NCBI GenBank assembly: GCA_951406725.2
Contig: OX597820.1
Coordinates: forward strand, 112,468,001 to 112,532,000
Direction: 5' to 3'
Length of the DNA stretch: 64,000 nt
Origin: Octopus vulgaris
Taxonomy: Eukaryota
Shown here: piece after piece, positions 3,457-19,898 of the stretch
Numbering within the stretch: the first letter of the stretch is position 1
How the letters are laid out: each line of letters opens with the position of its first letter
Position numbers and translations under genes: made by a program
Notes under the pieces: model-generated
What the model was told of the DNA's origin: nothing
Databases searched by the model: none
Seen by the model: the letters and a program-made list of their open reading frames with translations, nothing else

Positions 3457-3887
3457 CTGAAGAGAAAGGAAAAGAATCTTTGATTAGATATTTACAGCAT
3501 GAACATTTTGGTTAATCTTTTGAAATTTAGCCGGTTTTTTATCCTTTTATTTACATATGACTAGAGAACCCTTTGCCTGCTGTTCACAGTACAACACATT
3601 AGCAAACATCGTGATAGAACAAACACAATTGAACAATATAAAGGTCAGCTTAGGTCAATTTGAATGTCCAATTATTTTTCTTCTATCTCAATGCATGGTT
3701 GTTTTATGGTTTTATTTAACAGAATTTCATTGTCAGTGTATAGCACATCATTTGATCCATTTACTTAATTTTTGTATTTAGGAATGGTCATTTTGCCAGT
3801 TTAGCCGATAAGAACACACACACTATATATTTGGTATTATTTTGCTTCAGCATTATTTATTTTTTACATTAATCTTAATCTTATTTC

Positions 3888-3932
3888 GGCCAGAGTTCTT
3901 TCGTCACACTCCTGTGACCTCATCAGTGGTCC
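3888..3932 (-). ncRNA. Minimal type-I hammerhead ribozyme motif, family A
   Basis: GGACCA CUGAUGA G [GUCACA-GGAG-UGUGAC] GAAA GAAC UC^ UGGCC: core boxes, 6-bp stem II, short stems I and III. Confidence 0.75.
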
Positions 3933-4026
3933 TTTGCTTTCTTCTTTATTTGTGTGTCTCTCCTTACTAACATTTGATAAAATGGCTGACCACTAGTAAG
4001 GAGAGACACACAAATAAGAAAGCAAA

Positions 4027-4071
4027 GGTCCACTGATGAGGTCACAGGAGTGTGACGAAAGAACTCTGACC
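4027..4071 (+). ncRNA. Minimal type-I hammerhead ribozyme motif, family A
   Basis: GGUCCA CUGAUGA G GUCACA GGAG UGUGAC GAAA GAACUC UGACC. Confidence 0.7.
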
Positions 4072-15785: not shown

Positions 15786-16486
15786 TATATATATATATAT
15801 ATATGTATATATATATATATATATATATATATATATATATATATATATATATATATATATATATATATATATATATATATATATATATATATATATATAT
15901 ATATATATATATATATATATAAACATGATAAATAAGCATGTAGTTACATATAGTGTATATATAGCAATATATAATGTACACACTGGAAGTTGAGCTGATA
16001 ACCCTCATAGCAGAGATAGAAGTGTTCAGTTTACATGACTATGTAATATATCAGACATGATATGTTATCGTGTATAATAATCTGCTGTGGTTTAATGACT
16101 ATACATCAATTAGCTAACATAATATCTGACTTACTCAGATATATCTATGATGAGATGGGAAGAGGAAAAAGATAAAGATGAGTTTCTCCCAAACTACAAT
16201 GGACATGAATCAGTCACAAGAGGAGGCACAAAGCCAGAGATTTTAAGGGGACAGGTTAACCAGTGCTATTGACATCAATATTTAACTAATACTTTATTTT
16301 ATCAACCCCAGGAGAAAGGCAAAACTTGATCTTAGCAAAGTTTGAACTGAAATGTGAAGTGCTAGGACTGATATAGCAAAACATTTTTTTCCTACCCTAT
16401 AATCATTCTGCTTGCTTGATTGACAAAAGAAACAACATTAAAATTCAACAATAGTAGTAGTAGTAATAGTAATAAAAATCACTTAC

Positions 16487-16637
16487 GGAACAACAGTGTT
16501 CGTAGTCACAATATATTCCACATCCTTCGTCCAAGGGTTCCGGAAACTAAAACATTTTGACCATAAATGCAGAAATGTTCCATCTTTGGCTTTAAACTGA
16601 AATATGTGTGTCTCAAGTTTGTCTTTAGTTTGTAAAA
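16487..16637 (-). CDS. ARNTL: BMAL1/cycle exon, PAS-B/PAC
   Basis: 151 nt, phase 1 to 2, gtaagt donor; (V)LQTKDKLETHIFQFKAKDGTFLHLWSKCFSFRNPWTKDVEYIVTTNTVV(P) with the conserved NPWTKxVEYIV. Confidence 0.96.
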
Positions 16638-19452
16638 CTGAAATGGAAGTATAAGTGGACAGTCAGCGATTGATAATTAGACAGAGATTTTAGATTTCAA
16701 AAATCATATGTGATATGTAGTTGTTTTAAAGAACTTAGCCATAAACAAAAGCTGAAAATATTTGGTATTCAACATCATAAAGAATGGTAATGAGTAGAAA
16801 GCTGAAAAATCTGTCAAGCAGTCACAGTTAAAGTTGGTCACAAATGAAAGGCTAGAGGCATTTGTTAGAATATTGTTTTATTAAATACAGGTCATAAATA
16901 AAATCTGAAAATTTTCTGTGACCACATTGAGTAAGATCTTTTCAAAGACAGGTCAGTAAATGGCTGTAGTTAAAACGATAATAAATAAGAGGTCAGCGAT
17001 GCTGTTAAGGAGTTCTTATAAATATTTGTTGGATGATGTCTGTTAGTCCTATTTCAGGACTCACAATGTCTAAAGGGTGATCACCACTTACTGTATATTT
17101 TCAGAGAGAGTTGGATATGAATAAACAAGTATTTCGTTATCTATTGAGCTAGCCTAAAAGTTACAAAGAAAGTAATAGACTGAAAGACTGGTCTCAAAAG
17201 GTTGTCAACTAAAAGACTGGTCAAAGAAAGGTTGGCCATAGAAAGATCCAGAGTAATTGATTCGTTAAGTGTCTTATGGATGTTATGATTATTTTGTGTC
17301 ACACATGGGATTCAAAAGACAACAGTTTTACAATCTTTGGCAAATTTTGAAGAAGAAAAGCTTACAGATTACATTTAAATCCCCATTGCAGTAAGGTTAT
17401 GATTGTATTTAATTTAATGGTATGGGTTAATAGTTATATTATTTAGTAAATACAATGTTTATACAATGAATGACATAGAAAAAATATATTACTACATTGA
17501 AGTGCCATACACCTGAGTTGTGTTATATGTTATATTGCTGAGACAGGACATTTTTGTGTATGATTTAGAATGTATGTCAGTCTGCCTCCTTACCTGTTAT
17601 CTTCTACTTTCATGCAAATGTACATAGATAATTCTGTATGGTTATATATGTACATAAATATGTGCATATTTGTCAGTTTGTAACTCTAAATTTGCTTATG
17701 AACCGAAACACATACAACTTCATGTGAGATAAAGAAAGAAAATCATTTTGAAATGTTTGTGTGTGTGTGTGTGTGTGTGTGTCGATATGTATCATAGAAG
17801 CATTACAGCCATTTAAAGAATATATTCAAACAGAAGATGATTTCAATGTTTGATTAATTTCTACAGATGAACCTAAACATATTTCTGGGCCTACAGATGA
17901 ACCTAAACATATTCATCCTTAAGCATGTCAATAGTTCCGTTATAACTAAATACCCACGAAAATACTATCTTCCCTTCCTGCGTTTTTCATGCTAACTTCT
18001 GACCCTCCACCAACTTCATGTGCTCCATTGACTGAACATGTTACAACATATCACCACACCCCTCTTATGTATTATTGCATCTATGAGTCTTACTTCACAT
18101 TTTTTCCATGTCTTCTTAGTAACAGTTAGGACATCTGACCATAGAAAATCTGCCTCAATGAATTCTGCCTGACCTATGTAAGCATTGAAAATTGGATGTT
18201 AAAATGAAGATGATGATGATGTCTTTCTTGTGTTGTTTTTTCCCTCTGCCATTTGTACTGTTTGCTATTACCATACAGCCCCCTTTCAACTAGAATGTGT
18301 AATCCATTCTTATCACATGTTTATAGCATTACAGACGTGCATACATACTGGTTGATGCCATTAATACCCAGCTGCTCACATCACTCACTTGCACTCTATT
18401 TTATCACTCACCAAATACTCCATACACATTACTCACATCGTATTACCATACAATATCACCAATTTACTCATTGTCTCTAACACAGGTAACAATTCTCTGA
18501 ACATTTAGCTTTTTCCTACTCTAGCTACAGATACTTCTGTAAACTTTCAAACTGTGTACACACACACACACACACATACACACACACGTAAACAACAGGT
18601 TGTGCTGTGCACAACGTAGATAAATCAAGGGTTGAACAGAACAAACACAACAAGGAGAAAACCCAGCCTTTTAACATTGCAAAACTGCTAGGACGTTCTG
18701 GACATTGACTGAGGAGGAAATCAGCTGCAAATGTTCCGGGTGCCTTGTTTTTGTCCAGTTTCCCAATTGTTATGTTATCGTCTAGTTTTCTGTATGTTGT
18801 GTTTTTTGTTGGTTTTCCACTTGTGGTGTTTTCTCCTTGTGTTCTTTTTGTTATGTGTGTGTGTGTGTGTGTGTGTGTGTGCATGTATGTGTGTGCATGT
18901 ATGTGTGTGCATATGTGTGTGTATATATATATACATAGATATATATATATATGTATGTATATGTATGTATGTATATGTATGTATGTATATGTATGTGTGT
19001 ATATATATATATATATATATATATATATATATATATATACATATACAAATATAGATATAAATATATATGTAAACAAATGACGTGTATTGTGCTACATGGA
19101 TGTATTAAGGGTTGGACAGAAAGGATACAAGGAGAAAAGTCAGACGAAAGCAGAGTAAATGGGAAAGTAAGCATAAACTAAATGGACAGGAAATTAGACA
19201 ATGACACAATATGCAGAATATTCAGTCAAAAGCACAAACTATCATAGCAGTTTCACACCAATTACCTTCGATACTGCTTAATTTTACAGGTGCCAGTACT
19301 TTTATTAAGCTACTGGGAAAAAAACTAGTGAATGTGTGCTAAGACAGAAACAAACAAGACATTATATAAATACAAGAGACAGCGGATTATACATATATAA
19401 CAGTATGAAGCCTTATGACTTTATACAAACTAGAAAGAAAATAGTAATAATT

Positions 19453-19898
19453 ATATATTTGTTTTGCAAGATTCTTGACGTGAAATCGTGTGTTGAAACA
19501 GATGTTGTTGTATTTCGGAATGGTCATTTTGCTAGTTTAGCCAATAAAAACACACGCACTATATATTTGGTGTTAATTTGCTTCAGCGTTATTCATTTTT
19601 TTACATTAATCTTAATCTTATTTCGGTCAGAGTTCTTTCGTCACACTCCTGTGACCTCATCAGTGGTCCTTTACTTTCTTCTTTGTGTGTCTCTCCTTAC
19701 TAATGGTCAGCCATTTTATCAAATGTTAGTAAGGAGAGACACACAAATAAAGAAGAAAACAAATGACCACTGATGAGGTCACAGGAGTGTGACGAAAGAA
19801 CTCTGGCCAAAATAAGATTATGCTGAAGCAAAGTAACACCAAATATATAGTGTGTGTGTTTTTATTGGCTAGACTGGTAAAATGACCATTCCTAAATA
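19453..19898. mobile_element. Second fold-back family A element, opposite orientation to 3772-4240
   Basis: Same arms and same spacer, reverse-complemented; hammerhead motifs at 19625-19669 (-) and 19764-19808 (+). Confidence 0.85.

Follow-up and report, generated by a model that had tools for sequence, protein, structure and literature searches.

The stretch examined here, i.e., 64,000 nucleotides of contig OX597820.1 of Octopus vulgaris (assembly GCA_951406725.2, positions 112,468,001 to 112,532,000; hereafter the window, whose first letter is position 1), is AT-rich animal DNA with many microsatellites. On its minus strand it harbors a BMAL1/cycle-like clock gene, with exons near 41.4, 28.7, and 16.6 kb, and it contains four insertions of one repeat family, referred to as family A: two palindromic dimers (D1 and D2), in which two copies of the same sequence are joined head to head, and two solo copies (S1 and S2), as reported in Table 1. 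D2 and S2 are located between the 28.7- and 16.6-kb exons of the BMAL1-like gene; D1 and S1 lie beyond the 16.6-kb exon, on its downstream side, and probably also in introns, given that no C-terminal motifs typical of BMAL1 were found in the window.

Table 1. Copies of family A in the window and the target-site duplications (TSDs) bounding them. pLTR stands for pseudo-long terminal repeat, and ORF for open reading frame; UTR, untranslated region.
Feature	Positions	Strand	Content or evidence
D1, left TSD	3762..3773	+	12 nt, TACTTAATTTTT; none of 168 control pairs of AT-rich sites attained 10 nt
D1, short arm	3774..3975	-	Tail-less inverted pLTR; minimal type I hammerhead, core 3926, predicted cut 3893
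D1, junction	3971..3984		Head to head, small palindrome; short arm lacks 8 nt; same as in D2
D1, long arm	3979..4191	+	pLTR; hammerhead core 4033, predicted cut 4066, helix I weakened; ATG 4168
D1, tail	4192..4243	+	~52 nt; carries the ATG frame on to codon 25
D1, right TSD	4244..4255	+	
D2, left TSD	19439..19455	+	17 nt, AAATAGTAATAATTATA; microhomology overlap with the element ends
D2, tail	19456..19503	-	
D2, long arm	19504..19722	-	Hammerhead core 19663, predicted cut 19630; ATG 19527
D2, junction	19713..19726		Same as D1 junction
D2, short arm	19726..19893	+	Hammerhead core 19770, predicted cut 19803; private 23-nt deletion
D2, right TSD	19894..19910	+	
S1	15053..15788	-	Monomer with 5' truncation, within a (TA)n run; ORF end of 53 codons (15627-15788), ~350-nt 3' UTR, tail-less pLTR, hammerhead core with one changed base
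S2	25278..25580	-	5'-truncated tail-less monomer; hammerhead core 25433, predicted cut 25400
S2, TSD	25265-25277 and 25581-25593		13 nt

The alignment of D1 (3766-4243) with D2 (19908-19452, on the opposite strand) revealed an identity of 90.4% over 480 columns, one 23-nt gap included; within the elements, 19 substitutions were counted in 437 aligned sites (a divergence of 4.3%). The first-pass annotation of this DNA had described two oppositely oriented palindromes sharing an asymmetric centre, one arm about 50 nt longer than the other, and arm-specific variants, and all these features were found again. A 30-nt word taken at the junction occurs exactly twice in the window, mismatch-free in D1 and in D2, and has no other occurrence with up to five mismatches; the extension of ~52 nt is likewise confined, within the window, to D1 and D2. 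When the four dimer arms are compared, four substitution columns separate long from short arms and none separates the two loci, and the ATTCATTT variant (column 129) is present in both long arms, the D2 short arm being deleted at that column. One end-gap column groups by locus, while a 4-nt indel grouping by arm (column 42) was left uncounted because it might represent two different deletions. The two arms of one dimer are ~93% alike, and private changes, which concern few sites, show no A-to-G bias.

The limits originally proposed for the two palindromes (3772-4240 and 19453-19898) can be refined to 3774-4243 and 19456-19893, i.e., to units bounded by previously unreported TSDs. These are 12 nt long in D1 and 17 nt long, with a different sequence, in D2, and the TSD of S2 has a length of 13 nt. 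The control consisted of 168 pairs of AT-rich sites, taken outside the four elements, simple repeats, and windows whose GC content exceeds 30%: none of the 168 pairs reached 10 nt, the maximum being 9 nt (an earlier control, in which the elements themselves were included, had yielded 14 of 600 at 12 nt or more). The 1-kb flanks of D1 and D2 have no BLAST hit in common on either side, contrary to the local duplication with shared flanks that had been considered as an alternative. Each dimer is thus a separate insertion with its own TSD, and both come from one template that already held the junction. It is known that a variable TSD length points to target-primed reverse transcription and speaks against a cut-and-paste transposase.

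The abundance of family A was assessed on public contigs, comparing 4 of 24 runs with half of D2 (19090-19770); neither contig depth nor summed depth is a copy number. Contigs near-identical to the flank had a depth of 11.3, 47.9, and 5.1 in runs X1, X2, and X5, respectively, and the arm bins sum to 10^5-10^6; the family is clearly very large. For the two variants common to the long arms of D1 and D2, the share of the summed depth in three runs is 0.65-1.6% and 0.32-1.6% at most (in the 40 rows listed out of 113). This low share indicates that they are rare derived states and that D1 and D2 stem from one template, their rarity making a chance assembly of the dimers from monomers unlikely. The depth at 19734-19756, which is only a ceiling since monomers can be placed there, amounts to 1.9-4.1% of the neighbouring arm bin in three DNA-like runs, and the junction-bearing lineage looks like representing at most a few percent of family A. 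The shared long-arm variants are no deeper than the variants private to D2, so that the contigs give no evidence of more than two copies. Hence, of the proposal that the dimer formed once and was then amplified as a unit, the single origin of the junction and at least two insertions of the whole unit are upheld by the separate TSDs, the unrelated flanks, and the rare arm-wise variants, whereas amplification is shown for two copies only.

Each arm contains a type I hammerhead directed away from the dimer centre. Its helix II comprises 6 bp and its helix III 2 bp, helix I is short (2-3-bp core), a bulged base lies between positions 9 and 10.1, and G10.1 pairs with C11.1. A descriptor scan disclosed five motifs in the window (three with the strict descriptor) against 0-1 in each of 20 shuffled sequences, in agreement with the hammerhead in each polarity previously claimed, provided that it is understood as one hammerhead-like motif per strand: each strand of each dimer has only one. 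The Rfam search retrieved no hammerhead at the gathering score in the window and none at E up to 10 around D1; its miRNA matches fell below threshold and were rejected as hairpin artefacts. The ribozyme core pattern had no match in metagenome, viral, and prokaryote contigs, which is expected for octopus DNA and uninformative on viroids. Folding predictions pair 88-90% of the bases of D1 whichever polarity is taken. Both long arms have a weakened helix I, and in a through-transcript the imposition of helix II together with an open core costs 51 kcal/mol; since the antisense arm would be transcribed first, the model predicts that the ribozyme is trapped in the hairpin. The stem-loop of the tail is no more stable than shuffled sequences (z -1.12). 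The predicted cuts of D1 (3893 and 4066) are placed well inside the TSD-bounded unit, whose ends correspond instead to the two 3' ends of the family, 120-180 nt past the predicted cut sites.

The existence of two 3' ends emerges both from the window and from the contigs. The ends of S1, of S2, and of the two short arms fall within ~8 nt of one another, and the long arms run ~52 nt further. Among the 24 of 891 rows listed, loose ends with mixed flanks form two peaks, one at 19451-19463, the tail end (in X1, 102, 63, 108, and 32 contigs), and one at 19505, the tail-less end (37 contigs in X2 and 33 in X5), which indicates that the family has two preferred 3' ends. The end of many tailed copies lies a few bases beyond that of D1 and D2. 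The idea that D1 carries a few bases of the D2 flank was dropped, since related peptides and loose ends place those bases within the family. At 19497-19500, loose ends were observed in many contigs having the same tail and a different upstream sequence, pointing to other subfamilies with the same ORF start.

Contigs also revealed other inversion junctions, at least seven among the rows listed, which comprised 15 joints out of 32 and 12 of the 22 between-letter rows. Four of these lead from the antisense into a sense arm, with breakpoints at 19468, 19548, 19636, and 19651; their short sides, where given, measure 21-23 nt, which makes them weak evidence. Three strand changes (19496/19601, 19550/19683, and 19554/19593) have sides of 35-53 nt, the last one reaching a depth of 316 in X1. 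Family A makes inversions repeatedly, and at least one other inversion junction may itself be multi-copy.

The upstream sequences of the solo copies, which had been described as different, are shared by S1 and S2 (90.7% over 332 nt); S1, flanked by (TA)n runs, reaches ~15788. In D1 and D2, an ATG 102 nt past the predicted cut site opens a frame of 25 codons extending to the end of the tail, and four of the five differences between the two dimers in this frame are synonymous (P 0.006-0.017 under neutrality). Database searches disclosed peptides related to this ORF start. The best match of the tail peptide is a gene model of Octopus bimaculoides (P0003; 92% over 25 aa), which runs on into a YqaJ/SWIM-type protein that we take to be of DNA-transposon type; this protein is unrelated to the first 30 residues, and P0003 is probably a chimeric gene model in which the family A tail peptide has been joined to it. 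For the 53-aa ORF end of S1, the nearest named Atlas family is GIY-YIG (score 0.84, 15% of the cluster), a weak lead from one source. In the search for the parent protein, P0006 had no match other than phage ones at chance level; of the five metagenome loci retrieved, L001 was rejected as a chance match adjoining a Lon-type bacterial protease gene (named by eye), and L002-L005 are 16-residue matches.

These characters recall the Penelope-like retrotransposons (PLEs). The octopus is rich in PLEs, O. vulgaris having 30 recently active Penelope families (PMC13282606; PMC8967140). The minimal hammerheads of metazoan PLEs show the same features, are weak cleavers as monomers, and occur as pairs 100-700 bp apart on opposite strands (PMC4209133); in both dimers the two cores are 107 nt apart, also on opposite strands. 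Insertions of PLEs often comprise an inverted 5'-truncated copy and a tail of 30-40 bp at one end (10.1101/2021.04.23.441226; PMC8969392). Joins in Adineta usually have a head-to-head arrangement and a palindrome, the TSDs are 8-10 bp long, and the first 12 residues of the ORF, or 22 with the tail, are encoded in the pLTR (PMC3846280). A purified PLE protein, for which a dimeric state is predicted, acts on AT-rich DNA by nicking both strands and extending them; it starts reverse transcription at two internal sites bounding the tail, hammerhead cleavage being dispensable (PMC11167929). The dimers share with endonuclease-containing PLEs of the Penelope/Poseidon type, such as the Pen2a element of Adineta vaga and PAc of Anolis, an inverted head-to-head pLTR, a palindrome at the join, and an optional one-sided tail (PMC3846280; PMC11167929), as well as an ORF start lying in pLTR and tail, two 3' ends, a minimal hammerhead, variable AT-rich TSDs, and microsatellite targets. 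They differ from the known PLEs in that no ORF body lies between the repeats, in agreement with the non-autonomy formerly ascribed to the unit, in that the same junction was inherited by two insertions instead of occurring only once, and in the length of the TSDs (12-17 nt versus 8-10 in PMC3846280). Remnants of the Schistosoma PLE Cercyon resemble them in ribozyme architecture, spacing, and opposite strands, whereas for these hammerhead pairs the available part of the paper makes no mention of movement as a unit or of a shared junction (PMC4209133).

Taking all this into account, we consider family A a PLE of the octopus and each dimer a pair of pLTRs, one at a tail-less and one at a tailed 3' end, joined head to head and copied from a template that already had the junction, a reading to which we assign a probability of about 0.8. 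The dimers are best filed as ORF-less head-to-head doublets of PLE terminal repeats, and the presence of a ribozyme on each strand is a simple consequence of the inverted terminal repeat. According to this model, a PLE protein with reverse transcriptase and GIY-YIG domains would be supplied in trans, and insertion would proceed by target-primed reverse transcription. The endonuclease would nick the two strands of an AT-rich target at a distance of 12-17 nt. From one nick, priming would take place at the internal start site located where the tail ends, and the tail, the long arm, the junction, and the short arm would be copied; from the other nick, it would make use of the tail-less start site on a template of opposite polarity, which could be either an antisense RNA or the first complementary DNA strand, where the pLTR is in the sense orientation. 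The outcome would be exact PLE 3' ends on both sides and a tail on one side only, the hammerheads being pLTR baggage within the hairpin, not needed for the excision of the unit. The short-arm ends of D1 and D2 differ by a few bases, with no flank carried along; since both ends of the dimer are 3' ends of the family, they appear to be set anew at each insertion.

Three sources of the template can be envisaged, whose weights are a rough split of the overall probability. Tentatively, the template might be represented by other dimers belonging to a dispersed non-autonomous subfamily, as the first-pass annotation had it; an ORF-less, self-complementary mini-PLE (a "retro-MITE", after the miniature inverted-repeat transposable elements, MITEs) would then spread from dimer to dimer across the genome, and, having a PLE 3' end on either side, it could be primed on both polarities by a dimeric PLE protein, which would thus make an exact copy of the hairpin. 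No less doubtful, the template might have been a 5' head inherited by full-length master elements, with priming at their first tail site; this fits the synonymous excess and the sharing of alleles at columns 49, 147, and 207. The third and less likely source is the BMAL1-like pre-mRNA, from which one of the dimers would have been derived as a local copy of the other, a possibility that fits the presence of two rare copies 15 kb apart and the fact that this pre-mRNA reads the long arm and tail of D2 in sense.

Several observations weigh against the PLE interpretation as a whole. Neither a reverse transcriptase nor a full ORF of family A was found, the 53-aa ORF end of S1 had no match in Pfam, NCBIfam, PHROGs, PDB, and the protein collection, and the protein that best matches the tail peptide runs on into a YqaJ/SWIM-type transposon protein. 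The tail of the dimers (~52 nt) is longer than the 30-40 nt published for PLEs, and loop 3 of the hammerhead, which closes helix III, is not palindromic. At columns 49, 147, and 207, the alleles that distinguish D1 from D2 recur in other copies, a sharing that a simple parent-daughter copying leaves unexplained. Moreover, the priming step on two polarities is itself deduced.

Among the other explanations, the one faring best, although improbable, is that each dimer was made afresh from monomers at a recurrent self-priming hot spot and was later homogenized by gene conversion. Self-priming at palindromes is the model published for PLE inversions (PMC3846280), family A makes many inversion junctions, and the three columns mentioned above share alleles with other copies. 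However, the junction is identical over 30 nt, the loss of 8 nt included, the other junctions have different breakpoints, and two rare variants fall in the same arm of both copies.

It is known that viroids and viroid-like RNAs with ambisense ribozymes have a ribozyme motif in each polarity and a high degree of self-pairing. The dimer had been likened to viroid-like RNAs and retrozymes, which would make it a unit that is transcribed, self-cleaved in each polarity, circularized as a rod of ~450 nt, and reinserted. The motif on each strand and the extensive pairing in both polarities conform to this idea, but it is very unlikely and the claimed architecture is not borne out: with one trapped ribozyme per strand no unit circle can be cut out, the ribozyme being of a weak minimal type with helix I weakened in both long arms; the element ends at the 3' ends of the family and not at cut sites; and the "rod" is the linear fold-back of two similar arms. 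In contrast to viroid-like RNAs, the dimer is a genomic insertion with TSDs. Non-LTR retrozymes, which have been related to the pLTRs of PLEs (10.64898/2026.07.22.740005), are similarly small and non-coding, with type I hammerheads (PMC7229834; 10.64898/2026.07.22.740005); nevertheless, they are direct tandems that need two ribozymes in one polarity, of the canonical type, and give rise to circular RNA, whereas the dimer is an inverted pair with a single minimal ribozyme per strand. As to LTR retrozymes, they have type III hammerheads, direct LTRs, and a 4-bp TSD, whereas the dimer has type I hammerheads, inverted arms, and TSDs of 12-17 nt.

Even less probable is a MITE or fold-back DNA transposon that captured PLE ends as inverted repeats and was moved by a transposase. 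The unit is indeed short and non-coding, has long inverted repeats and two dispersed copies, and its tail peptide best matches a protein fused to the YqaJ/SWIM-type sequence, presumably of DNA-transposon type. MITEs and fold-back transposons are, like the dimer, short, non-autonomous, and provided with inverted repeats (PMC8969392, and in part general knowledge); however, the TSDs of D1 and D2 differ in both length and sequence, their ends are asymmetric and ragged by a few nucleotides, and their monomeric relatives are 5'-truncated in the manner of retroelements, with the same kind of TSD (S2). Lastly, a local segmental duplication or inversion of the dimer block, or an assembly artefact, is largely refuted: the copies, although only 15 kb apart, have distinct TSDs and dissimilar flanks, which excludes the duplication of a block, and the 4.3% divergence and the private 23-nt deletion also speak against it.

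As far as the surroundings are concerned, the D2 flank at 19236-19381 itself belongs to a lower-copy repeat, according to the public contigs, and a 3' fragment of an 18S rRNA gene (~14000-14722; Rfam RF01960, 53.8 bits) lies 300 nt from S1, within the host gene region. Two of the four family A insertions at the BMAL1-like gene are long hairpins and possible substrates for editing or small interfering RNAs. The window also contains a second, unrelated head-to-head pair (63140-63388) embedded in (TA)n, in which both arms have a hammerhead-like core and one exceeds the other by 67 nt, with a tandem duplication of ~21 nt near the join; the descriptor scans did not recover these cores. Nor did they recover two related motifs at ~63443-63475 (-) and ~54830-54860 (-), which on visual inspection look like hammerhead cores with an initial U in place of C; the former looks, again by eye, like the U3-A8 type described for Schistosoma PLEs. 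Two inverted arms of 213 nt, 100% identical and 973 nt apart (54325-54537 and 55511-55723), are unrelated to family A and represent either a recent event or an assembly artefact. Four plus-strand segments (29273-29668, 61133-62019, 23458-23782, and 42996-43292) are presumably decayed fragments of reverse transcriptases of the long interspersed nuclear element type and of mariner/Tc1-type transposases, as judged by eye; 29273-29665 had no Pfam match above the cut-off.

The head-to-head pLTR architecture as such is already published, and the formation of the tandem and inverted ends of PLEs is still called undefined (10.1101/2021.04.23.441226). Among the papers listed in literature searches, none dealt with family A or with an inherited head-to-head pLTR unit, although the family may already stand in repeat catalogues. 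The junction shared by D1 and D2, together with exact PLE 3' ends on both sides, suggests that an inverted head is heritable and that both polarities are primed. The finding also calls for caution, in that a hammerhead in each polarity and a rod-like fold can, in animal genomes, be the remnant of a PLE and not a viroid-like RNA. If the mini-PLE reading were true, the inverted head of a PLE would be not only heritable but also sufficient for mobility, rather than a one-off by-product of insertion, and each copy would plant a double-stranded RNA hairpin of ~190 bp in the introns of its host.

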